64,000 bases of DNA from Desulfurococcales archaeon (GTDB lineage: Archaea; Thermoproteota; Thermoprotei_A; Sulfolobales; WANQ01): NCBI GenBank assembly GCA_027030065.1, contig JALVFK010000109.1, positions 13,572 through 77,571 on the forward strand, given 5' to 3'. This document shows, piece by piece, positions 13,335 to 30,168 of this stretch. The notes below the pieces were generated by a model, which searched no databases, was not told where the DNA came from, and worked only from the letters and a program-made list of their open reading frames with translations. The first letter of the stretch is position 1; every line of letters starts with the position of its first letter. The position numbers were made by a program, and so were the translations under genes.

Positions 13335-14257
13335 TCCTTCTTATCCAGAGAAACAAGCCCTTGCATGTATTGTTTTAGTCTTGCTATAGCATAGAATACT
13401 AGGCCTAGAGCAACCATGAGTAATCCTACAGTAAATAGTATTAATACAGATGTTGTTAGAATAGGATCTATTATTCTCGTATCCTTGTAAACCAATAATA
13501 TACGTAGCATCATTATAAGTGATACTATAACGCTTACGAGACCAGGCAATCCCAATAGGAGGAGGGGATGACGTTCAGTAAACAATTGTATTATTCCGAC
13601 AATAAGTACAGCTAAGTGGTAGAGGGGATTGTGCTTACTGGCATCCTCGTGGGATGTTATGGTTATGGGTACCTCCTTTATCTTTAAGTTCTTATTTCTA
13701 GCTTTTGCCAGTATTTCCACACTTGCAGCCATCGTATTGTCTTCTGGTATAAGGTCTCCTACTACGCTAGCCCTATATGCTCTAAATCCGGATTGTGCAT
13801 CAGTTATCCCGTTTATATTAAATGCTGTTTTCACAGTTCGTGTTACCGCTTTCACACCTAGAATCCTCCATTTTGGCTGAGTTGTTTTTCCTAGAAAGCG
13901 TGATCCTATTACTATATCGGCTTCTCCCTTTACTATTGGCTCTACTAGTCTTGGTATTTCCTTTGGGTCATGTTGACCATCAGCATCTAGTGTTACTATT
14001 ATGTCTGGCTTTAGTTCTAGGGCTTTTTTGAAGAGTGTTCTTAGTGCTGCACCATATCCCTTGTTTTCATTGTGTTTTACTACTATTGCTCCTAGTTCTC
14101 TAGCTATTTCTGCTGTTAGGTCTCTTGACCCGTCGTCGCATACTATTATTTTGTCAACGTACTTCTTAGTCTCCACTATTACTTTTGCGATATATTTTTC
14201 CTCATTGTATGCTGGTATACATGCCACTATTACAGGCTTATCTTCCTTATACATCAA
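13331..14257 (-). CDS. family 2 glycosyltransferase, dolichyl-phosphate sugar synthase-like, with C-terminal TM helices
   Basis: 'VACIPAYNEEKYI...IIVCDDGSRDLT...TLDADGQHDP' are GT2/DPM1-like motifs. Two C-terminal hydrophobic helices follow. Confidence 0.85.
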   Translation of the reverse strand: MMYKEDKPVIVACIPAYNEEKYIAKVIVETKKYVDKIIVCDDGSRDLTAEIARELGAIVVKHNENKGYGAALRTLFKKALELKPDIIVTLDADGQHDPKEIPRLVEPIVKGEADIVIGSRFLGKTTQPKWRILGVKAVTRTVKTAFNINGITDAQSGFRAYRASVVGDLIPEDNTMAASVEILAKARNKNLKIKEVPITITSHEDASKHNPLYHLAVLIVGIIQLFTERHPLLLLGLPGLVSVIVSLIMMLRILLVYKDTRIIDPILTTSVLILFTVGLLMVALGLVFYAIARLKQYMQGLVSLDKKE

Positions 14258-14363: not shown

Positions 14364-15848
14364 TTACATTAGGACCGTTCCGCGTCTCTCGTAGAGTGTT
14401 TCGTAGAGCTTCTTATTGTATTCTTCTACACTCCCCTCGAATTTCTCTAGGTCTTTCACTATTTTTGCACGTACACGTATTTCCTCTAATACTTCTGATG
14501 GCGTCCAGCCCCGTTTCTCTGATATCACTTTTACTGGTCTTATAGTATGGAGTGGAGTTACTAGTTCGTGTATCCCTCTAGCTGGGTTGAACTGTATTAC
14601 TGGTATTAGTTTTCCTCCACCCTCGTGGCTGTAGAGTTCTGCTACACGTCTCATCTTGCCCTTGACTAGTAGACGCCTCAAATGTACTATGATGTATATA
14701 GCATCTAATGCTGCTGGCGAGACCTCTAAGGGAGGCATTAGGAGTCGCCGGAAACCTGATTCTGGTGTCTCGGCGTGGAAGGTTGTTAGACCACCGTGAC
14801 CAAGTAGGATTGCTTGAGCCCATGCCGCGGCTTCTGGTCCACGAACCTCTCCTACTATTACGTAGTCTGCTGATTCTCTTAGAGCGTGTACTACTAGGTC
14901 GAAGGGTGTTATCTCTACACCTTTTTCCTGTCTAGGAACCCTACGTAGGGCCTTTATTGGTGGTGTGAGTTCGGGGGTGTCTTCTATTATTACTGCTGTA
15001 GCAGTAGGTGGAATAGATGATAGGATAGCGTTGCTTAAGCTCGTCTTACCTGTCATCATTCCACCAGTTAATAGTATTGCTAGTCTCTCCTGAAAGGCTA
15101 GCCAGAGGAAGCCAGCCATAATTACTGGTATCGAACCATACTTAGTCATAGCTGATAAAGTCCAGATTCGAATGGGTTTACGTATAACGAAACTAGTTGT
15201 TAGTGGGGCTACGTCGCTCTTCATCATTACTGAGAAACGATAACCTCTTGGCCCCATAAAGCTACGGTATGGTCTAATCTTAGTTAACGCTATGTTAGCT
15301 GTCTTTAACGCTGTACGTACTATACGGTTAACGTATTCTTCCCCTAACACTATGTTTGATAGTGTTGCACCAAAGTTTGAGTGAATGATCTTTAATGGAC
15401 TCTCAGCATGTATTACTTGTATATCTTCAATGTATGGATCATCCATAAGAACCTCGAATACCCCGAGACCTAGTACCTCGTCTCTTACTCTTAGAACTAA
15501 TTGTTCGGGGAGCCCAGTTTCCCTTAGGAGGTCTTCTAGTACCGCTCTAGGTTCTATTAAGTATCTTAGGAGAGCTTCCTTAACAAGTAATAATTCTTCG
15601 TCTGAGAGTATTGGTAATTTTATGTGGTATCGATGAATATACTTTTCACGATATATAAATATTTCCGCGTACCTAACCTTATAGCTCATTAATATTTCCG
15701 CCCAGCTTGGAGGAGGCATCCCCCATTCCTTCTTTATAAGAGGTTCAACTAGTTCATCTACTTCTAATATTACTCCAGCTCTACCAGTAGCCTTGGCCTT
15801 CCTTTCAGCCTTTCCCGCTTGGACTGCTGTAGCTGCTTTTGTAGCCAT
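14364..15848 (-). CDS. type IV filament assembly ATPase (FlaI/ArlI-PilB-VirB11 superfamily)
   Basis: Walker A 'GGMMTGKTS', 'VIIEDTPEL', Walker B region 'YVIVGEVRG' and His box 'GHGGLTTFHA'. 494 aa. 5-nt gap to the upstream ORF. Confidence 0.9.
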   Translation of the reverse strand: MATKAATAVQAGKAERKAKATGRAGVILEVDELVEPLIKKEWGMPPPSWAEILMSYKVRYAEIFIYREKYIHRYHIKLPILSDEELLLVKEALLRYLIEPRAVLEDLLRETGLPEQLVLRVRDEVLGLGVFEVLMDDPYIEDIQVIHAESPLKIIHSNFGATLSNIVLGEEYVNRIVRTALKTANIALTKIRPYRSFMGPRGYRFSVMMKSDVAPLTTSFVIRKPIRIWTLSAMTKYGSIPVIMAGFLWLAFQERLAILLTGGMMTGKTSLSNAILSSIPPTATAVIIEDTPELTPPIKALRRVPRQEKGVEITPFDLVVHALRESADYVIVGEVRGPEAAAWAQAILLGHGGLTTFHAETPESGFRRLLMPPLEVSPAALDAIYIIVHLRRLLVKGKMRRVAELYSHEGGGKLIPVIQFNPARGIHELVTPLHTIRPVKVISEKRGWTPSEVLEEIRVRAKIVKDLEKFEGSVEEYNKKLYETLYERRGTVLM

Positions 15849-15853
15849 CTATT

Positions 15854-18286
15854 TTACCGCCTCCTAACCCTACCTATAATCTTATTTAGGTATCTGAGGC
15901 TTATAGCCGCTACCACTGCCGCAACGAGTGCACCTATACCGTAGCTGTATGGCGGGTTTACTAGGACTACGGGGAGTTCAGGTGTATATGTTGTTGTTAT
16001 AGTTGCGAACACTGTTACTGGTGAGACTACTGTTGTAGTCGTTGTTATAGTTGTATTGTTTATCACTGTTGTGGTAACGTTTTGTGTTACTGTACTCACC
16101 TTTACTATTGTTGTATTTGCTTTCCACACGGTTTGGACTATAGTTGTGTTCGCTATTGTTACTACTGAAGTCACTGTTACGTTGGTGCAATTACATGCAG
16201 TTACTGTTGTAAATGTCGTGTTAGTTGCTGTAGTGTTTGTCATGTTTACCGGTATAGTTGTATTCGTAATATTAGGCGGCGTTGGGGGGAGAGATATATT
16301 TAGTGTTACCCGCTTTGATGCTGTAACCCAGCGGTTTCCTAGGAAGTATTGTACCTCTACTACGAGGTCGTGTACATTCATAGTTATTGGCACGTCTAGT
16401 TCTAGTGTTGTATCGCTAAGCCATCTTGAGGTTGCTGAGAATATTAGCTCTTCTTGTCCCGTGAAGGGGTTTACTAGGTAGGCCTTATATATTGTGGGAG
16501 TCATTAACAATACTTTTTCCGTTGGAGTCCAGTAGACCTTTACTGGTACTTCGACATGGACTATTCCTGGTATACTCTTAGCTACTAGGTTGACTATGAA
16601 TGGCAAGTCTATTACTACTTGGGGTTCTATTGATACAAGCTTTATGTTAAAGGATGATATTTTCTCCTCTACTATGCTCCTAATATCTTCTGACCCCATT
16701 ACGATTCCCGGCGCCTTTATCGAGAATGTTATTGTGTAGGAGTTGTTTAGTGGTACCTGGAACTCGTAGCTTATATTCATACCATTTATAGGCTTCTCAT
16801 AGGAATACTCGTTGCCACCAACGTTTACCTTAGTTACTAGGTAGTAATGAGTGAGGTAGGGGAAGTATTTATCAAGATAGGCTTGTACATCAACCATCTT
16901 GTTGATCTCTACTACCGATACAATAGCCTTCTTATACGTCTCCTCATTCTCACATGTCAAGCATGGATTAACCGGATGTGAGGGCTTTGTAATGTTAATT
17001 AACTTTAAGTTAATATTACCGTATATTGATGGCTCATTTATCGATACATTGAGCTCTGGTACCCAGTAATCGTTGAGCCTATACGAGCCTAATGGTACTT
17101 GTCTTGCTGTGAAGGGGTCACCGGAAAGAGCTCCTGGAATATATAGTGTTAGTGTTACAATATATTCTTGGAATTTCTCTGATACTGGTATTGTGATATC
17201 TTGTTTCTTACCAGTTATCTTTAATGTATATGTCCCTAGATCATATTGCATCGTTTGGTTTCCTACCACTACTACCCCTTGTACATCGTATTCTAATACA
17301 AAGTACTTTACATAGTAGTATAAATCATCTAATAGCTGATTTAGATCTGTTAGATGATAAAATGAGGCGTTGACTCCTATCATCATACCATTTAGTGATG
17401 GTTCGAGATAGGCCGTTAGTATACCAGTAGCGAAGGGAAAGTCTATTACTGAAAGCAACTTCTTCTTGTAGGATGGTACTCCTATTGTTGGAGGTCTTAC
17501 GAATTCAATGTCAACCTTATAGGGATATAGTACAAGATATGCTGCATTGGACTTTGTTATATGATAAGTTACTCCCCCAGCAAGTGTTTGCTCGAGTGCT
17601 GGAATTATTATCTCGGAGCCCTTTGAGAGAAGCATTACCTGGTATATTCTTCCCTTGAACACTCCTGCACCCTTTAAAACCATTGAGTCTACTAGAGAGT
17701 CGTCTGGCATTGGATAGTAGAAGAAGAAGTTATCGTTTGATAACTTGACGTACATGTAGAGTATTCCTGGCACATATGCTACTTCTATTCTCTCAACTCT
17801 TCCGTGGAGTGTGGCTGTATCTGTGAGGTATTCTTTATTGCTGCTCTTATCTAGTCCTCTAACGTATATGAGGATCACGTTGTCTCCGGTAAAGTTTATG
17901 TATAGACTCCATGTTGATGGTTCTCTTGTAAAGTTTACCTGGAATTCAAGTGATTCAAGACTCGATGTGTTCATGGCAATGGATTCGGGTATTTCTATCA
18001 TTACCATAGGTCTTGGCTGTGGGTAGCTTAGCTTTATGTATCCGTCTTTTCCTATAGCCACGTATCCGGTCTCATTGTCTATTATATAGTTGTTGCCCTC
18101 AACTACAGCCTTATACAATGGTTTGTACTCTTGCAATAACCGGTTAGTACTGATTATACTGTATAGTTGTGGTGGTGGGAGTATAATCATTGGATAGATA
18201 GTGCTTGCACTAACATAGATGCTAGTGAGAGATACTAGTGCTAGTATTACTATTATTAGCCCTAGTAGCGGTCTAACGTGGTGCAC
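15854..18286 (-). CDS. 810-aa secreted, C-terminally membrane-anchored protein with a Thr/Asn-rich stalk
   Basis: GTG start with an AGGAGGGG SD. Sec-type signal MHHVRPLLGLIIVILALVSLTSIYVSAS. The C-terminal ~90 aa carry at least 12 N-x-S/T sequons, followed by a TM helix and an RVRRR tail. Confidence 0.75.
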   Translation of the reverse strand: MHHVRPLLGLIIVILALVSLTSIYVSASTIYPMIILPPPQLYSIISTNRLLQEYKPLYKAVVEGNNYIIDNETGYVAIGKDGYIKLSYPQPRPMVMIEIPESIAMNTSSLESLEFQVNFTREPSTWSLYINFTGDNVILIYVRGLDKSSNKEYLTDTATLHGRVERIEVAYVPGILYMYVKLSNDNFFFYYPMPDDSLVDSMVLKGAGVFKGRIYQVMLLSKGSEIIIPALEQTLAGGVTYHITKSNAAYLVLYPYKVDIEFVRPPTIGVPSYKKKLLSVIDFPFATGILTAYLEPSLNGMMIGVNASFYHLTDLNQLLDDLYYYVKYFVLEYDVQGVVVVGNQTMQYDLGTYTLKITGKKQDITIPVSEKFQEYIVTLTLYIPGALSGDPFTARQVPLGSYRLNDYWVPELNVSINEPSIYGNINLKLINITKPSHPVNPCLTCENEETYKKAIVSVVEINKMVDVQAYLDKYFPYLTHYYLVTKVNVGGNEYSYEKPINGMNISYEFQVPLNNSYTITFSIKAPGIVMGSEDIRSIVEEKISSFNIKLVSIEPQVVIDLPFIVNLVAKSIPGIVHVEVPVKVYWTPTEKVLLMTPTIYKAYLVNPFTGQEELIFSATSRWLSDTTLELDVPITMNVHDLVVEVQYFLGNRWVTASKRVTLNISLPPTPPNITNTTIPVNMTNTTATNTTFTTVTACNCTNVTVTSVVTIANTTIVQTVWKANTTIVKVSTVTQNVTTTVINNTTITTTTTVVSPVTVFATITTTYTPELPVVLVNPPYSYGIGALVAAVVAAISLRYLNKIIGRVRRR

Positions 18287-18458: not shown

Positions 18459-20273
18459 TTACGTCTTTAGTCCTCCAACGCTTGCTAGGAACATTTGCGT
18501 TAGCATTGGCTGGTACATTATTACTACATAGCTCATGAACTCAGATAGCGTGAATATTGGGAGAGATGTTAATAGACTGCCATTAGCTGCTCCATAGGAT
18601 GTTATTACTGCGAGAGGCATTACAGCTATACTAACCTTCATTGCATCAATAGTCTCTGCGCTTAGCGCTATTACTGAGGTCTGCATACCTACTTTTCCGA
18701 GAACTTTTATCATTTCAACTACTGCTCCCGCAACAATAAATGACACCAATACGATGAATACAGTTATGAGGACCGAAGCCAGCATCGTGGTACGTGAAAC
18801 GCTAACCGATTGTTTAAATGCTATTATCTTAGAAATGGTATCTGCTAGTAGATCTAGTCCCTGGCCAGTCGCATAGCCTCCTATCAATATACCCTCTAGA
18901 GTTTCATACGCAAAGGATAGGAGTGGAGAAGCAAAACCAAGTGGAGTAAATATACCAGTTTCAGCACTACGGGCGATTACCGTTAGTGCACGCTTAGAAT
19001 ACCTTGAACGAGCACGTTCTGCTAGATCCGATAGAACTCTTACTGGGTCCTCTCCTAAACTCACTCTTTCGGCAAGGCGTCTAAGAATGGTTGGTAGTTC
19101 GGCTTCAGCTCTCTTAACATTAACCATATGTAGTGAGACCACTGCTGCCGCTGGCGAGGTAACTATTGCAAGTAATAGTGCTAGATCATTGACTAGGTTA
19201 GCACCTATATTGAAATATAATGCCAGCGCTACTGGTACTCCAGCAAGCATTGCAAGTATAGCTCTTCCCTTGGGAACGTATTCTCTAAGTATTCGCGGTA
19301 TCATAAAGTACCATGGAAGAGAGATAACCGTTACCAATAGGACTGGTATGCCTCCTAGAACCAATACTATACGAAGTAATCCCATGGGCACAAATATGAG
19401 TAGAACAAATAATGTGGCTGCAATTAGTCCTAGAGTGCTTGTTACAATACTTGATATAAAGTCTATGCTATCAGCAATCTTAGTGACTTGTCTTTCAAGA
19501 GTCTTTAACTCTATATCTGATAAAAGTTCAGCTGTTTTCGTAATTCTACCAGTAGTCTCGTATTCTTCTAATAATACTCTAAGGGTATCAGCAAATTTGC
19601 GGTGAACACGTAGTGCTCTACGATAAACAGCTTCTGGTAATGTTACACCAGTGAACTGTGCCATTTTCTTTGCAATACTTATCTCGAAGGCTATTGCCTT
19701 TAGCCAGCTACGTTCAACGAATTCTAGTATTTTCTCGAAGGGGACGAGGGCTAAGTCAAGTATTCTCGCGATAACTGGAAAATATGGTAATTCTTCGTCT
19801 ATACGGCTTGCACGGAACTTTACTGTAGCACTCATAGAGAAGTGTGTTAGGAATATTGCTAGTGCTGGTGCAAGCGCCATTATACCTATTATGAGTGTCG
19901 TTGTATAGAGGGGGAGATGTAGTTGGTGCGCAAAGTATAGTGCTACGTAGAGTCCTATGGGTGTAGCTAATATTGCCGCATAAGCCACGTTACCGAAGGT
20001 GGACATAACCTTTTCTATCGCTATCGGTACACCGTATTCCGCTGCCGTTCTCATAAGCCTTGTCTTTAGTGCTCCAGCAGCATATGCGTAGAAGTATATC
20101 GCGGTGAAACTGGCCGCCGCTATTAGTACGAGGCTTAGAATCGCCATGAGCACGCCTAGAGTAAGCATCATGAGAGTAAAGACTATGGGAAGGAGCAGTA
20201 CCTCTGAGACTATTATTGTTTGGGGAATCTCTAGCTTCTCCTTAAATAATTTAAACTTAGGTACCTTTGCCAA
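18459..20273 (-). CDS. type IV filament platform protein (PilC/TadC/FlaJ-like, two T2SS-F-type repeats)
   Basis: 604 aa. Two cytoplasmic helical segments (RIDEELPYF...TGRITKTAELL and AEAELPTILRRLAERVSLGEDP...) are each followed by TM helices. The gene lies in the same operon as the ATPase. Confidence 0.8.
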   Translation of the reverse strand: MAKVPKFKLFKEKLEIPQTIIVSEVLLLPIVFTLMMLTLGVLMAILSLVLIAAASFTAIYFYAYAAGALKTRLMRTAAEYGVPIAIEKVMSTFGNVAYAAILATPIGLYVALYFAHQLHLPLYTTTLIIGIMALAPALAIFLTHFSMSATVKFRASRIDEELPYFPVIARILDLALVPFEKILEFVERSWLKAIAFEISIAKKMAQFTGVTLPEAVYRRALRVHRKFADTLRVLLEEYETTGRITKTAELLSDIELKTLERQVTKIADSIDFISSIVTSTLGLIAATLFVLLIFVPMGLLRIVLVLGGIPVLLVTVISLPWYFMIPRILREYVPKGRAILAMLAGVPVALALYFNIGANLVNDLALLLAIVTSPAAAVVSLHMVNVKRAEAELPTILRRLAERVSLGEDPVRVLSDLAERARSRYSKRALTVIARSAETGIFTPLGFASPLLSFAYETLEGILIGGYATGQGLDLLADTISKIIAFKQSVSVSRTTMLASVLITVFIVLVSFIVAGAVVEMIKVLGKVGMQTSVIALSAETIDAMKVSIAVMPLAVITSYGAANGSLLTSLPIFTLSEFMSYVVIMYQPMLTQMFLASVGGLKT

Positions 20274-20646
20274 GCCCGACCACCACTTGACTGTTTCCAG
20301 CCTTTATAACTACTCCCTCGGTGTTATAGGGTACGAGTGCCGCGAACCTTACCTCATCTCCTACTACTTGTTCAAATATTATCTTTTCTACTGGTTCTAT
20401 ACTGAGAGATGGTGGATTACCCTTGAGATATATTACTCCACTAACAATCCAGAATACATCATTTGTATCATTATCGCCATTGAGGTCAACCATTAAGGCG
20501 GTCTCATTTGCTAGATCTGTGTGTATATTAGCTACTGGTGGTGTTTGGAGACTTAAGGCTAAGTTCACGATGGTTAGGGATACAAGGACAGCTAATGCGA
20601 TTACTACTGGAATTGCTATTACTATGTCAAGAGAGATTGCAACCAA
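20257..20646 (-). CDS. small N-terminally anchored protein (pilin-like or FlaF/FlaG-like, uncertain)
   Basis: TTG start. 'MVAISLDIVIAIPVVIALAVLVSLTIV' is followed by a ~100-aa beta-rich region. It overlaps the platform gene start by 17 nt. Confidence 0.5.
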   Translation of the reverse strand: MVAISLDIVIAIPVVIALAVLVSLTIVNLALSLQTPPVANIHTDLANETALMVDLNGDNDTNDVFWIVSGVIYLKGNPPSLSIEPVEKIIFEQVVGDEVRFAALVPYNTEGVVIKAGNSQVVVGLGKGT

Positions 20647-20666: not shown

Positions 20667-20912
20667 TTATTTACCCATAGTATATAATACACGATAGGCT
20701 ATCCATACTAAGCCAGCTATACCTCCCCCTATGAGTATACCGGGTATAATACTATATGCTCTCAACGGGTAAAGAGCATAGGATAAAGCGAGTATAATTA
20801 TTCCTATTACGAATAAGTCTATGGGTTTTAGCTCTGGCTTCTTCTTACCCTCTTTTCGCCTCAGTATCTTTAGCTCCATTCCCCCCTCTTTCTTTTCGCC
20901 ACGTGTAGCCAC
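20667..20912 (-). CDS. small membrane protein (2 TM), first gene of the minus-strand filament operon
   Basis: 81 aa. A Lys-rich N-terminus is followed by two hydrophobic helices. GTG start. Confidence 0.5.
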   Translation of the reverse strand: MATRGEKKEGGMELKILRRKEGKKKPELKPIDLFVIGIIILALSYALYPLRAYSIIPGILIGGGIAGLVWIAYRVLYTMGK

Positions 20913-21044
20913 GTTCTACACCTGCACGAGTAAGGAGTAGTATATTATATTAACTAGTTGAAATACTATTTACCTTCACGTAGAACTTTTATTCCAGAGT
21001 AGTATAAATAGTTGTCCCAGGGGAGTAGAGAGGGAGAGAACAGT

Positions 21045-21302
21045 ATGGCAGCAACCTATGTAGTATACCTTGTATATTCTGGTCTCACAATACTCTTCTC
21101 CTTCGCAGTAGGCTATGGCTTCAAGATCCTAAAAGACGCACCAGTAAACGCGCCATCACTAGTAATAGCTGGCATAGGTATGGGACTCGTAGTTCTCGGA
21201 ATAGTAGCATACATAGATAAAATAATAAGTGGTATAACAGGATACATGAGACAACGTAAACTTAAGAAAATCCTAGGACCAGCTGAAGAGGAGGAACTAT
21301 GA
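21045..21302 (+). CDS. small membrane protein (2 TM)
   Basis: ATG at 21045 (MAATYVVYLVY...) is preceded by GGAGTAGAGAGGGAGAG. The ORF track uses TTG at 21012. The stop overlaps the next ATG (ATGA). Confidence 0.55.
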   Translation: MAATYVVYLVYSGLTILFSFAVGYGFKILKDAPVNAPSLVIAGIGMGLVVLGIVAYIDKIISGITGYMRQRKLKKILGPAEEEEL

Positions 21303-21793
21303 TCCGGATAAGAAAAGCTGTAAGCTTTATAGGAACAATCGTGGTAGCGTTAGGTGCATTAATAGCTGCTACTGTAGCTGCAATCATAATAACAACCCTA
21401 TTTAATGCCATGAGTACCCAACCCTACATTACGGCTGGCGATGCATACTATACCAATGCGACAAATTTTACACAACTACACGTACTATTCTACAATGTCG
21501 GTAAGGGAGGAGCATACTTCCAATACATGTACATTTATATTCCAACAAACATTAGCGGTACAATAAAGACAACTATAGCTAAAGTGCTCGTCACGGGAGA
21601 AGTCATAAACAATACAAGCGGCGCAGTAATAGGTTTTGCAAAATTTACACCAAGTATAGCAATCCAGCCTCAGGGAGTACTCGAAATGGTCATACAGGTA
21701 AACAATCTTAACGCCAATACAACAGCTACTAAGATCCTAGGTATAGCTGTATTTGATAAAGACTCGGTTGTCGTGACCTTTGACAAGATATAA
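21299..21793 (+). CDS. archaeal type IV pilin-like protein (class III signal peptide)
   Basis: N-terminus MIRIRKA|VSFIGTIVVALGALIAATVAAIIITTLF. 164 aa. Confidence 0.7.
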   Translation: MIRIRKAVSFIGTIVVALGALIAATVAAIIITTLFNAMSTQPYITAGDAYYTNATNFTQLHVLFYNVGKGGAYFQYMYIYIPTNISGTIKTTIAKVLVTGEVINNTSGAVIGFAKFTPSIAIQPQGVLEMVIQVNNLNANTTATKILGIAVFDKDSVVVTFDKI

Positions 21794-21925
21794 CCATAAT
21801 ATAGTATTGTGGATCCTAGCTTCTCGTTTCTCTAGTAGGAGGTTAAATATTAATAAATCCGCATAACAATATTTATGTATAAGTCGGCTAGGCTATACTA
21901 GAGAGTAGAAGAGGTGTTCAACAGA

Positions 21926-24277
21926 ATGTCTTTTCTAAGAAAAAAGACTAGGCGTGGTATCACATTTATAGGTGCAGTTATAATAGCAGTAGCCTTCCTC
22001 ATAGCCATAATGCTCGCAATTTCATGGATCCTAAGCTCTCAGAGAGCATACTTTACAAAACCCAACATGGTGACCGAGAAAGCTGAAGCCTATGGCGGAG
22101 GTAATACCCTTTGGCTAGAAATAAAGAACTATGGTATAAGTATCGCCACTTTAAAGGAAATATACGTTTATGATACTGAAGCAGGCAAATACTACATAGC
22201 ATATCCTAATGGAACAATAATAGACCCGGCGAAGAGAACAGCTGTTGGTACGGCTGAGATAAAGCCTCTTTCAGCAAGCGAGGGCGAATACATATATGCA
22301 AAACTAATATTCAATGCAGGTGTATTGCAAGGAAACCTTATAACAGGTGTAGCAGTATTCGATAAATCCCTTGCACCATGGAAGCTCTACAGAATACATC
22401 CGCCAGTCACACAACCAGGGTATGCTGTCAACGCGTGGAGAGTCAAGCTCTTCATATTCAATCCATCAGATTTAACAATATTCACTGATAACGCAAGCCA
22501 GTTTCTAGCTGGAACAATAACAAAGAAACCAATAGCAGTAATAACAATAACAAAGAACACACCTTTTGCCGGACACTTCTTCAACTGGAGCTGTGGGCTA
22601 GCAAGAGCCTACGGATGGACCCCAGGAAGCGATGTTGTATTCAGTGATGCTTATCGGAACACCATACTACCATTCTATCGTTACTATTTCAATTGTACAA
22701 GTAAGGTAGCGGTGTTTATAGTGTATCTGAAGAATACTACACTTTTCCCCAGACAAACATATCCAATATACATGTGGTATGCCCCATATGTAGTAGGTGG
22801 TGGAACAGTAACGATAACAGATCACAGCAATTTATCAGTATACTATATGGCGGTTAACAATAGCTTCCAGGACTTCTTCCGACAACAACCAGCTTGGGAC
22901 TATGATAATGGGTTAAGATCAAGGATCGCATGGATAAGAGACTATACAGCAAGCCAGCAAATGGATCCTATATACGACTATGAGGGTGAGGACGAAGATC
23001 TAAATGTAACCTCTTACGCGGACTGGCAATGGGATGGAAGCGATCATATCTACTGTACACAAGATCCAGCCGACGGAGACGTACAATGCTCCCTAACATA
23101 TCTTAACATGACGGACGGCTTCTTCGAAAGATTTCAAGGAGGAGGCAACTGGTACTACTACAAGTATCCAGAAGGCTATACATGGCTATTTGAAGTAGCA
23201 TTCAATATGACCCACAAACCACCACAAGCACCATTCAATCAAACCTATATAACAGCAATGACAACGGAGTTACACTACTTCTATGGTTGGTGGCTTGGAA
23301 GATGGTGGAGATATAGGGCATGGTATGGATGGGTCTCTAAGACTTTTGGTGCTACAGCAGCAAACTGGGCAATAATAATCTCTACAAGACGGCTTGACAA
23401 TCTAGTTCCACCGGACTACTATGTTATGCAACTCAAGAATGTAGAAGGAATAATACTTATTAACACGAGTATAACAGTTTATTGGAGATCGCCGGACTAT
23501 GCTTCAGAGACAAGTAGGCAGAACCTAGCCCTAACACCTAACTCGAGCGTGACGGTAACGGTATATAATGATACGACTACTGGTGTAGTAAGACTTATAG
23601 TTCAAACCGATATCCGGACCTATAACTTTGTATTGTATCCAAGTAATAGTAACTACGCTTTCAGAGTATTACTCATAAATACTACTGGCGGATACATAAA
23701 GTTGTTCGTAAACGCATGGACTGATGGAAGCGGCTACGGAGTATACTACGATGACTATGATTATCCCGCGCTTGGAAGAGAACTAATACCAAGCAGAACA
23801 GTTAGAGCATACTATATATGGCCTAGATACTTCGCAGTATGGTGGATAGCGTCAAAATGGAAAGACACTGATTCTACAATATGGGTTGGAAGAGAACTTG
23901 AAGCAACACTACAGACAAGAGACTTAACAAAACTAAACTTCAGCAAAATGCAGAGAATGGTATATAGCTTTACAAGTGGAGCAGACCTAGTCGGCACACA
24001 GTTCGTATGGATGGGTATAGCTAGTGAAGGAAACAGCATAGACGATGACGTAGGTAATCCACCACCACTCCAGTTCATAACAGCAGAAGCCAGCGGAGCC
24101 TATGGTGATGAACTAATAGAAGGAAACACTGTTACATTCATGGCAGTGGATACATGTTGGGATGATGACTATGGAACTAATTACTACTTAGTACAAGTAG
24201 ATTGGGCTAGAGTAATAATAGGATTAGGATACATATGGTGGGAAGGCCCAGTACTAGACCAATGGCCCTGGACCTAA
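21926..24277 (+). CDS. giant pilin-like protein: class III signal plus pilin module plus a ~620-aa Trp/Tyr-rich extension
   Basis: ATG at 21926 lies 9 nt after a GAGGTG SD (the track's GTG at 21914 sits inside the SD). The N-terminus is MSFLRKKTRRG|ITFIGAVIIAVAFLIAIMLAI. The first ~165 aa parallel the 164-aa pilin (e.g. ITGVAVFDKSL vs ILGIAVFDKDS). Confidence 0.75.
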   Translation: MSFLRKKTRRGITFIGAVIIAVAFLIAIMLAISWILSSQRAYFTKPNMVTEKAEAYGGGNTLWLEIKNYGISIATLKEIYVYDTEAGKYYIAYPNGTIIDPAKRTAVGTAEIKPLSASEGEYIYAKLIFNAGVLQGNLITGVAVFDKSLAPWKLYRIHPPVTQPGYAVNAWRVKLFIFNPSDLTIFTDNASQFLAGTITKKPIAVITITKNTPFAGHFFNWSCGLARAYGWTPGSDVVFSDAYRNTILPFYRYYFNCTSKVAVFIVYLKNTTLFPRQTYPIYMWYAPYVVGGGTVTITDHSNLSVYYMAVNNSFQDFFRQQPAWDYDNGLRSRIAWIRDYTASQQMDPIYDYEGEDEDLNVTSYADWQWDGSDHIYCTQDPADGDVQCSLTYLNMTDGFFERFQGGGNWYYYKYPEGYTWLFEVAFNMTHKPPQAPFNQTYITAMTTELHYFYGWWLGRWWRYRAWYGWVSKTFGATAANWAIIISTRRLDNLVPPDYYVMQLKNVEGIILINTSITVYWRSPDYASETSRQNLALTPNSSVTVTVYNDTTTGVVRLIVQTDIRTYNFVLYPSNSNYAFRVLLINTTGGYIKLFVNAWTDGSGYGVYYDDYDYPALGRELIPSRTVRAYYIWPRYFAVWWIASKWKDTDSTIWVGRELEATLQTRDLTKLNFSKMQRMVYSFTSGADLVGTQFVWMGIASEGNSIDDDVGNPPPLQFITAEASGAYGDELIEGNTVTFMAVDTCWDDDYGTNYYLVQVDWARVIIGLGYIWWEGPVLDQWPWT

Positions 24278-24306
24278 AGTTATCAGAAATCTTTTATCTT
24301 AGTCCT

Positions 24307-25521
24307 CTATCTTTTTCTCTTTATGACTAAGATTAATATTCCCGCTATAATTACTACAACCAGTATTAACCAATAGTTAAACTCACTACTCTTTATTGTC
24401 GTAGTAGTTATTGTAGATTTGTTAACTACTATTGTCGTGGTAGTATTCTGTACTTTTGTTATTATTTGCCCTCTACTCCTATGTACAATTATACTGAGGG
24501 TTCTCTCTGGTGTCTCAGAATATACTCTCTTCCCAGAAACCATTACTAACTTAAACGTGTATGTCCCGTTCTGCCATCCGTTTACTGGAATATAACGATA
24601 CTTGTACTCTGCTCTACCCTGGGATAATACTGGTATAGTAGCTATAGTTACATTCTCTAAGAAACTCCCATTATAGTTCACTACCAATACTATGCTGACA
24701 TTGTTAACTGGTTTATAGACATTTTTTACTACTCCTATCACTTCTGCAAACACTATATTGTTGTCCTTATAATATGGTAATATGTCAAAATAGTCAAACC
24801 ATATAGTTGAAACCGTTAAAAACACTTTTTCTGTCTCGTTTTCTTCTATTACAACTTTTTCTTCAGCGAGTAATTCTCCAGCTAGAGTTGCTTTAACGAT
24901 ATATTTACCCGGCGGTAATGATATGTTAATGTAACCAGTCTTGTTTGTTACAACAGTATATTCACCTTTTGGAGTTATTCTAAGCACTCTTACCTCAGTA
25001 ATAACATGATTCCCTTCTTTATCTACTGTCTCTACTACTAGCCTACCAGTAGGCCCTACTATTCTTATTGTTGTTCTCTGACCAGCTCCTGGTACAAGTA
25101 TAACCTTACCCTCTACAGTCTTCATCATAATATTCGCGTAGACTTTTATCTCGTACTCGCCGGGTATAGCGTTGGGAAGCGCCTTAATCTTAATATATAC
25201 TATCTTATGCTCTCCAGGCAACAAGGTTACATTTCGATGCGAAAATATTATTTCTATGAAGTCTGGTGCTTCGTATCCTAAACTCACGTTTACGGGCTTA
25301 CTCGCTGTATTAATTACGGCTATGTATATGTCCCTTCCCTCAATAGTAGTATTGGGGGCTAGTACATACTCGTATTTGTAAAATGATCCAGTTATAGCTA
25401 TTCTCGATGATTCAGATTCAGCATAACTTATCGAAAGAGATGTTAGTGAGACAAATACTGCAATAATCAATAATATTACAAATAGTAACCTGGTACTATA
25501 AACTGTGTTCACGATAAACAC
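24307..25521 (-). CDS. secreted, C-terminally anchored surface protein (beta-sandwich repeats)
   Basis: Signal peptide, CARDB/NEW3-like and CarboxypepD_reg-like segments ('GRLVVETVDKEGNHV...PPGKYIVKATLAG'), a Thr-rich stalk, a TM helix and a KRKR tail. Confidence 0.7.
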   Translation of the reverse strand: MFIVNTVYSTRLLFVILLIIAVFVSLTSLSISYAESESSRIAITGSFYKYEYVLAPNTTIEGRDIYIAVINTASKPVNVSLGYEAPDFIEIIFSHRNVTLLPGEHKIVYIKIKALPNAIPGEYEIKVYANIMMKTVEGKVILVPGAGQRTTIRIVGPTGRLVVETVDKEGNHVITEVRVLRITPKGEYTVVTNKTGYINISLPPGKYIVKATLAGELLAEEKVVIEENETEKVFLTVSTIWFDYFDILPYYKDNNIVFAEVIGVVKNVYKPVNNVSIVLVVNYNGSFLENVTIATIPVLSQGRAEYKYRYIPVNGWQNGTYTFKLVMVSGKRVYSETPERTLSIIVHRSRGQIITKVQNTTTTIVVNKSTITTTTIKSSEFNYWLILVVVIIAGILILVIKRKR

Positions 25522-25590
25522 CAGAGATAAGATATCTATGTGGGGTGTGGGGATTTTTCCAGAGTAAAAAAGAAATTACTATTTAGGAGA

Positions 25591-26610
25591 TTAGCCATTG
25601 ATTATTTGATAGTAGATTGCACCCGTATACGTTCCTGGCATTAGACCGTTGCCTAGCTGAACCCATGAGTACAATGATAGGGTGGCACCTGATTCACTCG
25701 TAGGTCCGGGATCGCTTGAGTGACCTGGTATTGTTTGATAGATATCAGTTACTAGTAGTGAATCAGTTTCGTCTAATAAGTTGTCATCGTCTGTTATTAG
25801 CTGGAATTCACCATCATTTAGAGTACCATCTGTGTCAAGTAAAGCTGTATACCCAGTCGTCGTATTCCATTGTGGGTCAGCCTTTGTTTGAACCGCATAG
25901 TTTCCATTAGCTATTAGTGTTAAGTTGTATGGATTCTCTTGTGCCGGTGTAGCTGCTGCACCTGGATCAAGGTTTCCGAAGTCTATTGTTGTTACATCAA
26001 TACTTATCTCACCGTACCATAGCATCGTTAATCCATACATTGAGGCCGTGTATGTGTTTCCACTGGAATCTGTTACTTCAACTATTATATCCCAGTCATC
26101 GGATGCGTCCGTATTTGCTTCATGGGCCACCTTACCTGGTATAAAGTGAAGCCACCAGTCGCCTTGTGTCGCCGTTAGGTCTGATGGAGCTTTGCTGCTA
26201 GCAGTATTTATACCCCAAGTGCTACCAGTAGGCCCTATTAGTTGCCAACCATTTGTTGGATCCCATTGATATGTGGCCCTTGTTGCTGGATCATCGGTTG
26301 CCGGCGGGGTACCTACAACCGTGTTATTTGTGTCATAGAATAGTATTACTTTTATCTGTGCAACATCTTGTAGGCTATTAGAGTCCGAAATAGTTATCTT
26401 TAGAGCATATTCCAGCTGTGGTGAAAGCGTTGTCGTTGTTGTTGTTTCATCACTTTCATATAATGCTATATTTATAGTCGGGGCGACATTATTTACTGTG
26501 TATTGTCCGGTAGCAGATGTTTCTGCACCATTAACATTTAGTATTGGTATTATTGATGCAAACAATAAAACTACTAACAATAACGCACTCTTACTTTTAC
26601 CTATTCCCAC
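25591..26610 (-). CDS. secreted beta-rich protein, possible fibre or adhesin subunit
   Basis: GTG at 26610 gives MGIGKSKSALLLVVLLFASIIPILNVNGA|E, with an upstream GGAGTGGGGTG SD. The track start at 26694 adds 28 non-signal residues. The protein ends with '...PGTYTGAIYYQIING'. Confidence 0.65.
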   Translation of the reverse strand: MGIGKSKSALLLVVLLFASIIPILNVNGAETSATGQYTVNNVAPTINIALYESDETTTTTTLSPQLEYALKITISDSNSLQDVAQIKVILFYDTNNTVVGTPPATDDPATRATYQWDPTNGWQLIGPTGSTWGINTASSKAPSDLTATQGDWWLHFIPGKVAHEANTDASDDWDIIVEVTDSSGNTYTASMYGLTMLWYGEISIDVTTIDFGNLDPGAAATPAQENPYNLTLIANGNYAVQTKADPQWNTTTGYTALLDTDGTLNDGEFQLITDDDNLLDETDSLLVTDIYQTIPGHSSDPGPTSESGATLSLYSWVQLGNGLMPGTYTGAIYYQIING

Positions 26611-26815
26611 AGCTAGCGCACCCCACTCCCATATAAAGAGATCATATATAAAAACTTTTATACAGTTATAACTGATAAAATAATTATTTAACATTATCTA
26701 ATTTAACAGATTAATATACATAATAGAGAGTTAGTATTTCTAACTGTACACGAAAGCAACTGTAGTTTATTCTATTAAGATAACCTACACTAGTATACTA
26801 AAATATTAGATAAGA

Positions 26816-27241
26816 CTAGTACATAGTCCTTAGTGCTTTTGTTCTTATAATGTATATTATTTCTAGTAGTTTTTCTCTTACTTTTTCTTCATTGCCTTCT
26901 TTTAGTGCCTCTACTATTTCTTTTCCTAGTGGAGGTATTCCTATAATTCTTGATATCTCGTCAAATAGTGTTTTTAGAAATGCGTCTACTGATTCGGAGC
27001 CCTTGAATTGTTCTTTTACTTGTCTATAGAATTCTATTGGTTCCTTGATCATGTATTCCACTAGTTCTTGTGGTTTCTCTATTTTACCTTGTGCTCTTAA
27101 CCCAGATAATAGTACTACTAGCATTGATTCTGTATATGTTTTTGCAATTATCTGTTTTATTATGTTGTAGAGTTTATCTCTTATTTTTTCATCTATTCTT
27201 ATTGATAGTTCCTCTATGTCGCGCTCGCCCGTATTCACCAC
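26816..27241 (-). CDS. hypothetical acidic helical protein (paralogue of the ORF at 28327-28599)
   Basis: 141 aa. It shares 'IKQIIAKTY' and 'VKEQFKGSESVDAFL' blocks with the 90-aa ORF. Confidence 0.55.
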   Translation of the reverse strand: MVNTGERDIEELSIRIDEKIRDKLYNIIKQIIAKTYTESMLVVLLSGLRAQGKIEKPQELVEYMIKEPIEFYRQVKEQFKGSESVDAFLKTLFDEISRIIGIPPLGKEIVEALKEGNEEKVREKLLEIIYIIRTKALRTMY

Positions 27242-27299: not shown

Positions 27300-28202
27300 C
27301 TATTTAACCTTTCCTACTATGTCATAATATATTCCGAGTAAGCTTTTATATGCGGAACCTCGAAATAATGGATTATTTTCCCTTACTTTTACTATATACA
27401 TTGTTTCCTCGTCGACTTCCAATAACATTTTATATATTTTGTCGGGATCTTGTATGCCCTTTCTTACTTGTTCTTCTATAAAGTTTTTCCATTCTATTAT
27501 TTTTCTCTTAGCTCTTTCCAATATCTGTATTCCGGATTCTAGTGCTAGCCCGAAATGCGATACCGCTACTTTATCTGGTTTCTCTGCTATGATTTTATCT
27601 ATGCTTTTTAATGCTAGTTCTGTTTTAAATGGTGGCGGGCTCACAGGATGCAATCTGCCATCATAGTACGTTGCTACAGCATCCCCAGTTACCGCTATGT
27701 TGTCTGGATGAACTATGTATACTACATGATGTGGTGCATGTCCTGGAGTATGAATCGCTTTAACAACTACTCCTCCTATATCTATGTTCTCGTAATCATC
27801 TATGCCTTTTACATACTCGCTACTTATAGGCTCCGGTCTTCCTTGTAGCTCAGCAACTTCCCTTCCCAAGACTCTTATTGCGGCATCCCATAGCTTTGAG
27901 GGATCTATTAAATGTTTAACACCTCTTGGGTGAACTAATATTCTCGTATTAGTCCCGATTCTCCTTACTAGTGATGTCGCTCCACCACCGTGATCTAAGT
28001 GTATATGTGTTAAAGCAATATACTTGAGTTCTTTAGGATCAATTATTTTCTCTAGCTCTGAGTAAAGCGTTTCTAAAGAACAGCGAGGACCAGTATCAAT
28101 TAACAACGAGTAATCGTCTCCTACAACCAAGTACACCGCTATTTGCCTCTCATATCCTAGAGGCTTTACATCTATCTGATAAACATGACTACTTATTTTC
28201 AT
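27300..28202 (-). CDS. metallo-beta-lactamase fold hydrolase
   Basis: 'LTHIHLDHGGG' HxHxDH motif, a later 'HTPGHAPHH', and 'TGD'. Confidence 0.85.
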   Translation of the reverse strand: MKISSHVYQIDVKPLGYERQIAVYLVVGDDYSLLIDTGPRCSLETLYSELEKIIDPKELKYIALTHIHLDHGGGATSLVRRIGTNTRILVHPRGVKHLIDPSKLWDAAIRVLGREVAELQGRPEPISSEYVKGIDDYENIDIGGVVVKAIHTPGHAPHHVVYIVHPDNIAVTGDAVATYYDGRLHPVSPPPFKTELALKSIDKIIAEKPDKVAVSHFGLALESGIQILERAKRKIIEWKNFIEEQVRKGIQDPDKIYKMLLEVDEETMYIVKVRENNPLFRGSAYKSLLGIYYDIVGKVK

Positions 28203-28770: not shown

Positions 28771-30168
28771 GTGATGCAGGCAAGATACTATATAGAGAGG
28801 TGTCCCACAGGGGTACCGGGATTCGACGAGATTACTCAGGGGGGATTCATACGAGGATCACTAGTACTACTAGCTGGTGCTCCAGGTACTGGTAAGTCTG
28901 CTTTTGCTGCCAGGTTTCTCTACGAGGGTGCTCTGAGATGGGGTGAGCCGGGAGTCTATGTTAGTTTTGCTGAAACAAAGAATAAGTTCTATGCATTTAT
29001 GCGTAATTTTAACATGGACTTTGAAGAATTAGAGAAGAAGGGTTTGTTTAAGTTTCTACAATTACCAACAACTATTAGCCGCGAAGCTATATCGTCTTTT
29101 ATGGAGATATTGTTTAATACCATTATCTCCATGAACGCTAAGAGACTGGTAATAGACTCAATAACCCCTATAGCACAAGTATTGGGACCTATTGAGACAA
29201 GAGCAACGCTACATAATGCACTCTACAATCTAGCCAACCTATATAATGTTACTATAATAATGATACAGGATATACCCATAGGGTCTAATAGGATAGGCTA
29301 TGGTGTTGAGGAATTCATAGTTGACGCCGTAATAGTGTTGAACCTAGACTATACGAAGCCTGGAGCATATAGACGCTACATGAATATCCTGAAGTTTAGG
29401 GGAACATGGATATCGGATATAGCCATAGAATACAGTATTGTATCTGGTATAGGGTTTATACTACACCCACCAGTAACCTTTAGGAACATCTATGTTAACA
29501 GATCAAGAAGGCTTAGAACCTATATTAGAGGATTGGATGAACTCCTAGGAGGAGGACTAGTAAAGGGTTCATCAACACTAGTTGAGGGAGTAAGCGGTAG
29601 CGGTAAAACATTATTAACGCTAACAATAGCTGCTGAAAACGTACTACATGGTGAAAACGTATTCTATCTATCATTTGACGAGCCTTCAAGCCAGTTAAAG
29701 GAGACTTTAAAACTATTAGGTTATAACATAGAAGAACTTGAAAGAAAAGGATTGAAAATAATATGCATGGATCCCTACGATGTATCGCCTGGAAAACTTA
29801 GATGGTGGGTCCTGCAAAACCTAGTCTTTAAAGATACAAGGCTTGTCGGTCTCGTCGTCATCGATGGTTTATCAGCGCTTCAAAGAATATTTGATGAGAA
29901 GGAGTTCACTAGAACTATTGAGGAACTCGTAATGAATCTTAAAAATGAAAGTATTTCAACTATATTGAACTTATCTTTAAAGCATAGAGAAGATAGACCT
30001 AGCCTTGAGACCTTAGTGGACAACGTGATATTAATAGACCTTCGCTTTGAGGGTACTAAACTTGAGCGTAGAGCAATGCTACTAAAATCTAGAATGAATA
30101 TTATTAAAGGCGAATGGCATAGACTTACTCTAGACGAAAGAGGTAGACCTACAATAGAACCCCTATAA
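28771..30168 (+). CDS. KaiC-like two-domain RecA-superfamily ATPase
   Basis: Two Walker A motifs (GAPGTGKSAFAARF and GVSGSGKTLLTL) and two Walker B-like strands (RLVIDSITP and LVVIDGLSAL). 465 aa. Confidence 0.85.
   Translation: MMQARYYIERCPTGVPGFDEITQGGFIRGSLVLLAGAPGTGKSAFAARFLYEGALRWGEPGVYVSFAETKNKFYAFMRNFNMDFEELEKKGLFKFLQLPTTISREAISSFMEILFNTIISMNAKRLVIDSITPIAQVLGPIETRATLHNALYNLANLYNVTIIMIQDIPIGSNRIGYGVEEFIVDAVIVLNLDYTKPGAYRRYMNILKFRGTWISDIAIEYSIVSGIGFILHPPVTFRNIYVNRSRRLRTYIRGLDELLGGGLVKGSSTLVEGVSGSGKTLLTLTIAAENVLHGENVFYLSFDEPSSQLKETLKLLGYNIEELERKGLKIICMDPYDVSPGKLRWWVLQNLVFKDTRLVGLVVIDGLSALQRIFDEKEFTRTIEELVMNLKNESISTILNLSLKHREDRPSLETLVDNVILIDLRFEGTKLERRAMLLKSRMNIIKGEWHRLTLDERGRPTIEPL

Follow-up and report, generated by a model that had tools for sequence, protein, structure and literature searches.

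The closest described counterparts of the protein reported here are the modular pilins of bacteria, in which a complete pilin module carries a bulky extra module at its C-terminal end, as in PilB and PilC of S. sanguinis (with a vWA module and a ConA-like lectin module, respectively), CofB/TcpB and GspK (PMC8179133, PMC9934059). We analysed a stretch of 64,000 nucleotides (nt) from a hyperthermophilic Desulfurococcales archaeon (contig JALVFK010000109.1, positions 13,572 to 77,571), referred to below as the window, and describe a type IV pilus-type locus within it that encodes a giant protein of 783 amino acids (aa), made up of an N-terminal pilin module and a 632-aa extension (gene at 21926–24277, forward strand). 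The giant protein resembles the bacterial modular pilins in that a pilin carrier is followed by a bulky C-terminal module, in that it is specified by a single low-copy gene beside that of the major pilin, and in that the payloads vary. It differs from them in having an archaeal class III signal (RRG/ITFIG, the slash marking the predicted cleavage site), with neither the IPR012902 motif nor a Glu at position +5, in having the archaeal immunoglobulin-like beta-sandwich as its pilin fold, and in carrying a 632-aa payload that shows no signature above threshold. No bacterial pilin family in Pfam or NCBIfam matches it. Because both signal and pilin fold are archaeal, the protein can be said to work like a bacterial modular pilin while standing outside that set, and the survey of modular pilins in PMC8179133 includes no archaeal example, the word "archaea" occurring there 0 times.

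In Archaea, large proteins with a class III signal and "adhesin-like" genes are already known from pilus loci (PMC4371748, 10.64898/2026.04.22.720090 and PMC4858521). In Euryarchaeota, the domain DUF2341 occurs in large proteins of Epd-type pilus loci (arCOG03508), and also in PilY adhesins, and a role at the tip has been proposed for it (PMC4858521); in M. maripaludis, a DUF2341 gene lying in the epd locus was a repeated hit of a transformation screen (PMC10133366). With these euryarchaeal proteins the giant protein has in common a DUF2341-type domain, large size, secretion, location in an archaeal pilus locus and a hypothesised part in tip adhesion, but its domain is divergent, scores below the Pfam cut-off, is fused to a pilin module, is not followed by LamG, and is found in Desulfurococcales. 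The tandem architecture of DUF2341 and LamG (Laminin_G_3) seen in proteins P0008 and P0010 is likewise not that of the giant protein. The bindosome proteins of Sulfolobus (PMC4371748) are similar in having a class III signal, a size four or more times that of a pilin and a dedicated pair of ATPase and platform; they carry the signal only, joined to a substrate-binding domain, whereas the giant protein has a pilin globular domain and no ABC transporter nearby. The archaellum stators FlaF and FlaG share a likeness of fold with it, from which it is set apart by its cleavage-type motif and its non-archaellum locus. Finally, Makarova et al. (2016) found untraceable extra components in the pilus loci of Desulfurococcales and guessed that these were minor pilins; within the part of that paper considered here (PMC4858521), the taxon and the complexity of the loci agree with the window, and neither a modular pilin architecture nor an exchange of payload is described.

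The giant gene and its pilin module

The mechanical open reading frame (ORF; 21914–24277, forward strand) gives 787 aa from the first GTG at 21914. The ATG at 21926, which leads to a product of 783 aa, is judged from the sequence to be the likelier start, as a GAGGTG motif resembling a Shine-Dalgarno sequence precedes it and as the orthologues are called from MSFL. The window has a GC content of about 40%, and the metagenome-assembled genomes most closely related to it bear the labels Desulfurococcales, Pyrodictiaceae or Thermoprotei. Collinear full-length orthologues with 99, 86, 83, 71 and 64% identity are 783, 783, 782, 773 and 780 aa long, respectively, and a more distant homologue of 687 aa has 36% identity; the clusters hold about 20 member sequences (773–786 aa) that stem from independent assemblies, the longest of the contigs measuring 693 kb. 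When the window was compared with the related loci L003 and L001, the ratio of nonsynonymous to synonymous substitution rates (dN/dS) was 0.04–0.06 in the helix, in the pilin sandwich and in all parts of the extension but one variable domain (residues ~497–596), where it was 0.05–0.16, the value of 0.16 being reached in one comparison. By these sequence comparisons, the giant ORF is a genuine gene under strong purifying selection along its whole length.

The protein begins with a class III-type signal (MSFLRKKTRRG/ITFIGAVIIAVAFLIAIMLAISWIL), the mature part starting with ITFIG. Cleavage would occur after the Gly of the predicted leader peptide MSFLRKKTRRG (21926–21958, forward strand, as for all parts of this gene), and the motif of a basic residue and Gly or Ala before the site and [IVLM]-T-F-I-G after it is kept in the orthologues and in the 164-aa paralogue described below. 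A hydrophobic alpha-helix follows (aa 12–44; 21959–22057), found by hydropathy scan and modelled by AlphaFold2 as residues 15–48 in the 787-aa numbering. This helix is the sole segment of the giant protein that resembles a transmembrane segment and it lies at the N-terminus, so that everything after about residue 45 should be extracellular. The beta-sandwich of the module (aa 45–151; 22058–22378) ends in GVAVFDKSLAP, which marks the module junction.

An AlphaFold2 model built on an alignment of 8 sequences shows a long helix and a beta-sandwich for residues 20–160, with a predicted local distance difference test score (pLDDT) of 70–86. The best Foldseek match of the module in the PDB is an archaeal type IV pilin from Pyrobaculum calidifontis (8fk7_A, E=6e-5), followed on ranks 2–6 by FlaG and FlaF of S. 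acidocaldarius (E=7e-4 to 6e-3, with a template modelling (TM) score on the target of up to 0.79), and the sequence profile of the module matches the archaellins 5z1l (E=1e-5) and 5o4u (E=7e-4). By its N-terminus, its fold, its sequence homology and its context of ATPase and putative platform genes, the N-terminal module is a member of the archaeal type IV pilin/archaellin superfamily, within which the pilin encoded next to it is its paralogue. That the giant protein consists of a pilin module and an extension is, in our judgement, very likely.

The adjacent gene encodes a stand-alone pilin of 164 aa (21299–21793, forward strand) with the leader MIRIRKA/VSFIG, a hydrophobic helix, a beta-sandwich and 6 N-glycosylation sequons, and is a candidate for the major subunit. 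Its family (clusters P0011–P0025, 159–180 aa) is always encoded directly upstream of a giant pilin. BLASTP aligns the small pilin to residues 11–151 of the giant protein with 24% identity over 156 aa (E=1e-5). As hydrophobic helices can inflate similarity scores, the helix was removed before the relationship was tested again. The globular parts alone gave a Smith-Waterman z-score of 3.8, the score being reached in 13 of 2000 shuffles, and an hhalign comparison between the beta-sandwich profiles of the giant family and of the 15 small-pilin clusters gave a probability of 95.9% (E=6.2e-9) over 106 columns. A likeness that arises from the composition of the hydrophobic helix alone is ruled out by this helix-free result. 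The conserved columns of the joint alignment comprise [ST]FIG after the cleavage site, a strand with N.G...Y.Y, and the end G.A.F[DN]K.

An initial annotation of this DNA, made from the sequence alone, had proposed that the large ORF begins with a complete pilin module paralogous to the pilin encoded just before it. Pairwise alignment of the two ORFs bears this out, since the homology is significant and persists without the helix (21299–21793 is followed by the mechanical ORF 21914–24277), and the three blocks that had been quoted as parallel, namely the signal with the helix, the N.G strand and the AVFDK end, are conserved columns of the joint alignment. The same annotation had pointed out that a frameshift might have fused two genes. 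A fusion of a pilin gene to the gene downstream, whether by frameshift or in assembly, is ruled out by the collinear orthologues and by a dN/dS of about 0.05 across the junction, and the existence of 20 or more clusters in which such a pilin bears another, unrelated extension (see below) also excludes an artefact. Together with the homology that remains after removal of the helix, these results leave an artefactual fusion or a chance resemblance of helix composition with a negligible probability, and no point in its favour was found.

The extension

The extension of the window protein, which we call type A (22379–24274, 632 aa), is rich in Trp and Tyr, with 18.5% aromatic residues and 4.9% Trp, and has 5 Cys, no internal repeats and no transmembrane segment. 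With 17.4% aromatic residues, the giant protein as a whole ranks highest among the 55 tabulated ORFs of the window. There are 15 sequons in the extension as compared with 1 in the pilin module of the same protein and 6 in the small pilin. By its predicted topology the extension is extracellular.

A profile of the extension, run against a library of 1.84 billion representative proteins, gave two strong matches, both of them giant pilins of the same family; the extension is thus detectable nowhere else and never without the pilin module. The remaining matches were P0008, P0010 and P0009 only. P0009, a repetitive GTPase-like protein, was discarded as spurious, its match consisting of five repeats of 6–9 bits each. 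P0008 and P0010 are proteins with DUF2341 and Laminin_G_3, and all six of their six DUF2341 copies align at the same profile positions, 80–179, corresponding to a beta domain at aa 231–330 (22616–22915); the full DUF2341-like domain probably starts near aa 165. The best single DUF2341 domain scored 31.5 bits as against 7 bits or less in 400 shuffled controls, the library-wide E-values for the two proteins were 4e-11 and 3e-4, and hhalign related the extension to DUF2341 with a probability of 67% (E=5e-5). No similarity to LamG or ConA-like domains was detected by hhalign or Pfam downstream of this part. Searches of Pfam, NCBIfam and PDB sequences with the extension and four crops of it returned nothing above threshold, and the DUF2341-like segment is the one part of it that could be recognised.

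The variable domain (residues ~500–600; 23411–23713) is modelled as a beta-sandwich with a pLDDT of 60–87, and no other part of the extension is folded with confidence. This domain is also the least conserved part, and is gapped or deleted in the distant homologue P0006. The C-terminal VDWARVII of the extension may resemble the end of a jelly-roll glucanase.

Exchange of the payload at a fixed junction

Sister lineages carry a different extension at the same place. A small pilin followed by a giant pilin is present in every related locus examined (L002, L003, L005, L006, L008, L009 and L011/12), and the giant proteins of L005, L006, L008, L009 and L011 share with the window protein only the pilin module (38–51% identity, E down to 1e-35). 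In the same syntenic position, these type B proteins continue with an unrelated extension of about 600 aa. Homology between the type A and type B extensions was rejected, as hhalign gave a probability of less than 2% even with a type B profile of 20 sequences.

The rest of the locus is orthologous. Between the window and L005, identity amounts to 79% for the putative platform, 53% for the 810-aa protein, 52% for the small pilin, 58% for the 129-aa protein, 69% for the downstream lactamase-fold and KaiC-like genes and 50% for the pilin module of the giant protein; the locus genes overall range from 45 to 79%, and the extensions have no similarity at all. These values are about equal to those between the window and L002, a locus of type A. 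The exchange takes place at a junction with the motif FDK.LA[PS], which reads FDKSLAP/W in the window, the slash here marking the boundary.

Type B (P0007 and P0026–P0044) comprises 20 clusters with unannotated proteins of 710–963 aa; each has an N-terminus of class III-like character, RRGQAEVIGG being an example, and in the lineages nearest to the window the pilin module is that of type A, with 40–50% identity. As only 6 clusters are of type A, type B is the commoner form and type A is probably a lineage-specific replacement. In the AlphaFold2 model of a type B protein (pLDDT 77), a pilin module with 8fk7_A as its top match is followed by several beta-sandwich or jelly-roll domains and a C-terminal alpha/beta domain. 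The type B extension gives weak Foldseek matches to receptor-binding and tail proteins of phages and to accessory domains of glycosidases. A PA14-like insert considered for P0043 is unsupported by Pfam.

A mosaic pattern was also seen within type A. Over 21065–24277, nucleotide identity between the window and L001 is 90–97% in the small pilin and the pilin module and 77–87% from about 22465 onwards, and the synonymous substitution rate (dS) is 0.21 in the module as compared with 0.82 in the extension, which hints at recombination near the module junction.

Genes of the pilus-type locus

The locus is divergent. The genes for the ATPase and for proteins of 810, 604, 129 and 81 aa lie on the reverse strand, and those for a 96-aa protein, the 164-aa pilin and the giant pilin on the forward strand. 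Archaellin and FlaH/X genes are not among them, and the neighbouring genes are not transporter genes, no ABC transporter being adjacent. The secretion ATPase of the type IV pilus type (494 aa; 14364–15848, reverse strand; Pfam T2SSE, E=1e-18) has afGspE (2oap, E=6e-36) and FlaI (4ii7, E=2e-33) as its nearest relatives in the PDB. In NCBIfam it scores 157 bits for FlaI and 129 bits for BasE, both far under the respective cut-offs of 550 and 1000. Its orthologues in L005 (377–3214) and L008 (1570–4407) are 945 aa long and contain an intein (Intein_splicing with a LAGLIDADG homing endonuclease), which the window ATPase does not have.

Between the ATPase and the putative platform, all loci have a secreted protein, of 810 aa in the window (15854–18286, reverse strand), with 40–54% identity. 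A signal peptide and 23 sequons are present in the 810-aa protein, which has a stalk rich in Thr and is anchored by a transmembrane segment at its C-terminus; no family of Pfam or NCBIfam matches it, and within the same machine it might act as an adhesin or in association with the S-layer. The 604-aa protein (18459–20273, reverse strand) is a polytopic membrane protein that we presume to be a platform of the FlaJ/TadC type. Every locus has a protein of 126–137 aa, corresponding to the 129-aa protein of the window (20257–20646, reverse strand), in which a leaderless N-terminus, MV(A/S/N)IS(L/I)(D/E) and in the window MVAISLD, runs into a hydrophobic helix with no basic leader. The idea that it represents a third pilin paralogue was dropped, there being no detectable similarity to pilins; it may be a leaderless pilin-like accessory or one resembling FlaF/G. 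This protein also has a DLNGDGD motif resembling a calcium site. Two small membrane proteins, which flank the divergent promoter region, are conserved in all loci: one of 81 aa (20667–20912, reverse strand) and one of 96 aa (21012–21302, forward strand), the gene of which shares 4 nt with the start of the pilin gene. The giant gene is preceded by a gap of 132 nt, in which AT-rich boxes resembling TATA elements were seen by eye. A scan for sigma-70 promoters and terminators was set aside, as that model is inapplicable to an archaeon.

Interpretation and alternatives

What is found is a pilin-fold carrier joined to a selected, extracellular and exchangeable module in a conserved pilus-type locus. 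Of several possible explanations we favour, as moderately probable, a modular minor pilin with an exchangeable payload that serves an adhesin-type display on a filament resembling a type IV pilus. A prepilin peptidase of the PibD type would cut after RRG, and ATPase and platform would extract the giant protein from the membrane by its N-terminal helix, which would then enter a filament or a short pseudopilus made mainly of the heavily glycosylated 164-aa pilin. The giant protein would probably be present in low amounts, at the tip or as a subunit that primes assembly, because there would hardly be room for a 70-kDa appendage at each position of the helix and because there is a single gene copy; placement at the tip on grounds of bulk is an argument that has been made for the bacterial modular pilins (PMC8179133). 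The aromatic, N-glycosylated extension could then be displayed outside the S-layer as a lineage-specific payload for adhesion or ligand binding, possibly glycan binding. The pattern of 1, 15 and 6 sequons in carrier, payload and small pilin fits a buried carrier and an exposed payload. It is only the aromatic richness and the association with DUF2341 that suggest binding to glycans or surfaces.

The initial annotation had described the protein as a pilin with a long aromatic and sequon-rich extension, which is confirmed, and had suggested a pilin-anchored adhesin with a logic comparable to that of bacteria. This second suggestion holds as regards the architecture, which matches that of modular pilins, and a displayed module agrees with the DUF2341-like domain and the exchange of payloads; a lectin, a carbohydrate-binding module (CBM) or a beta-propeller, the folds that had been thought of for residues ~170–783, was not detected.

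Several observations weigh against the favoured interpretation. In addition to the absence from the extension of any signature of a lectin, CBM or propeller, FlaF and FlaG, which are not filament proteins, match the fold of the N-terminal module nearly as well as a pilin does. No gene for a prepilin (A24) peptidase was detected among the window ORFs scanned, and the role of the 604-aa protein as a platform is presumed from position and conservation (62–81% identity across loci), this protein having no match in Pfam, NCBIfam or the PDB. The Pfam model of DUF2341 (PF10102) scores 16.5 bits (E=0.012) on a crop of 174 aa, under its cut-off of 23.4 bits, and reports nothing on the whole extension of any of the six family members; it is for this score that we term the segment DUF2341-like and not a member of DUF2341. 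Outside the variable domain, the extension is poorly modelled by AlphaFold2 on the 8-sequence alignment (pLDDT 20–46, thus below 50), and a deeper alignment of the type A extension is impossible, since the profile search gave two representative clusters only. Finally, the type B genes with start regions at L005:9137–9230, L008:10304–10397 and L009:5857–5950 are called from an ATG at the +1 residue (MTFIG), and the in-frame codons upstream encode a conserved leader (N.RKG at its end) with synonymous differences between the loci, but no ATG, GTG or TTG is found between leader and upstream stop. These genes either use a non-canonical start codon or encode leaderless pilins. As several type B genes are of this kind, processing may not be universal in the giant family.

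A first alternative is a display of the bindosome kind, in which the signal and the pilin module would only let ATPase and platform anchor the protein in a short pseudopilus embedded in the envelope. A domain for binding or scavenging would thereby be kept in the pseudoperiplasm or the S-layer, and the protein would not be the adhesin of a long pilus. The bindosome subunits of Sulfolobus are large class III-signal proteins with their own ATPase/platform pair (PMC4371748), a preprint of 2026 argues that functionalised machineries of this kind are widespread in archaea (10.64898/2026.04.22.720090), BasE is the second-best NCBIfam match of the ATPase, and each locus has one giant gene and co-encodes the anchored 810-aa surface protein. 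On the other hand, the ATPase reaches 129 bits for BasE where the cut-off is 1000, the extension has no homology to substrate-binding proteins in Pfam or NCBIfam, no ABC transporter adjoins the locus, and a full pilin globular domain, paralogous to the co-encoded small pilin, is not a feature of bindosome proteins. We consider this explanation unlikely. It is also rather improbable that the protein is an anchor that does not polymerise, similar to FlaF/FlaG, the ectodomain of which would span the pseudoperiplasm and contact the S-layer, so anchoring a filament or letting it pass. Such an anchor is suggested by the fold search, where FlaG and FlaF take ranks 2–6 (TM up to 0.79) and recur for the type B model, by the single copy of the giant gene in every locus, as is to be expected of a structural part, and by the type B genes that seem to begin at the +1 residue without a leader. 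Yet type A proteins and several of type B keep the canonical basic-Gly cleavage motif, the module is related most closely to the neighbouring pilin, the locus is not an archaellum operon (157 bits for FlaI against a cut-off of 550), and the exchange of 600 aa for unrelated sequence, with the remainder staying orthologous, is not what one expects of a core part of a machine.

An extension with catalytic activity, for example on glycans, and tethered by the pilin to filament or envelope, is a further explanation, and one that we regard as very unlikely. Trp-rich acidic regions are common in carbohydrate-active proteins, and the extension is of this composition. The type B model has weak matches to accessory domains of glycosidases and to a fold of the SGNH type, and predicted peptidases are found among the bacterial modular pilins (PMC8179133). 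However, searches of Pfam, NCBIfam and PDB sequences revealed no catalytic family, and the Foldseek matches have TM scores of at most 0.15 and come from type B, not from the window protein.

The favoured reading, a modular minor pilin with an exchangeable payload, can be extended to a more general principle, which we put forward tentatively and as rather less than probable: an undescribed system of carrier and payload in Archaea, with a conserved pilin module as the general adaptor to a type IV pilus machine and with entire orphan payloads of about 600 aa swapped through recombination at FDK.LA[PS], giving hyperthermophilic archaea of vents a lineage-specific means of attachment or partner recognition, and with a DUF2341-like domain as the shared tip adaptor of crenarchaeal, euryarchaeal and bacterial PilY-type adhesins. 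Three features appear to be new, namely a component of a Desulfurococcales locus in which a complete paralogue of a pilin bears an orphan module of 630 aa, a DUF2341-like domain fused, and thereby physically tied, to a pilin, and the use of a single junction for two payloads that are unrelated. Little is understood of the way in which type IV pili of Archaea recognise surfaces and partners, and their adhesive specificity tends to be ascribed to the major pilin or to "adhesin-like" genes located elsewhere. The locus described here offers a concrete candidate, a pilin-fold carrier covalently joined to a large, conserved orphan ectodomain, and amounts to a natural swap experiment, as one carrier is found with either of two unrelated payloads while the remainder of the locus is orthologous. 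With it the principle of the bacterial modular pilin reaches into Archaea, and of the "untraceable" components in the pilus loci of Desulfurococcales at least one receives a putative role; the significance would be less if the protein were a static component of the envelope.

Neighbouring genes

Directly after the giant gene, a segment of 2.5 kb (24296–26816) encodes two secreted proteins, one of 404 aa with a C-terminal transmembrane anchor and 12 sequons and one of 367 aa that is rich in Thr. The segment is present in the window and L001 and absent from L003, L005 and L006, where a 141-aa gene or the lactamase-fold gene follows within about 0.4 kb of the giant pilin; it represents an indel of surface-protein genes adjoining the pilin payload. 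Further downstream lie the genes for a protein with a metallo-beta-lactamase fold (27300–28202) and for a two-domain KaiC-like ATPase of 465 aa (28771–30168, forward strand). Both are syntenic in every lineage examined, L003, L005 and L006 having orthologues; they lie a few kb downstream of the locus and might be linked to the locus as regulators resembling ArlH.

On the other side, the end of the secretion ATPase gene is abutted by the gene for an AglJ-like GT2 glycosyltransferase (13331–14257), followed by those for an 894-aa protein without family match (10650–13334) and a second GT2 enzyme (9610–10653). The genes of this region (9610–14257) may be relevant to the N-glycosylation of the sequon-rich pilins. 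At a greater distance (35443–39228, forward strand), the window encodes a protein of 1261 aa, probably extracellular, that has a GH57 domain at its N-terminus (E=1e-37), contains 4.8% Trp and bears 35 sequons.

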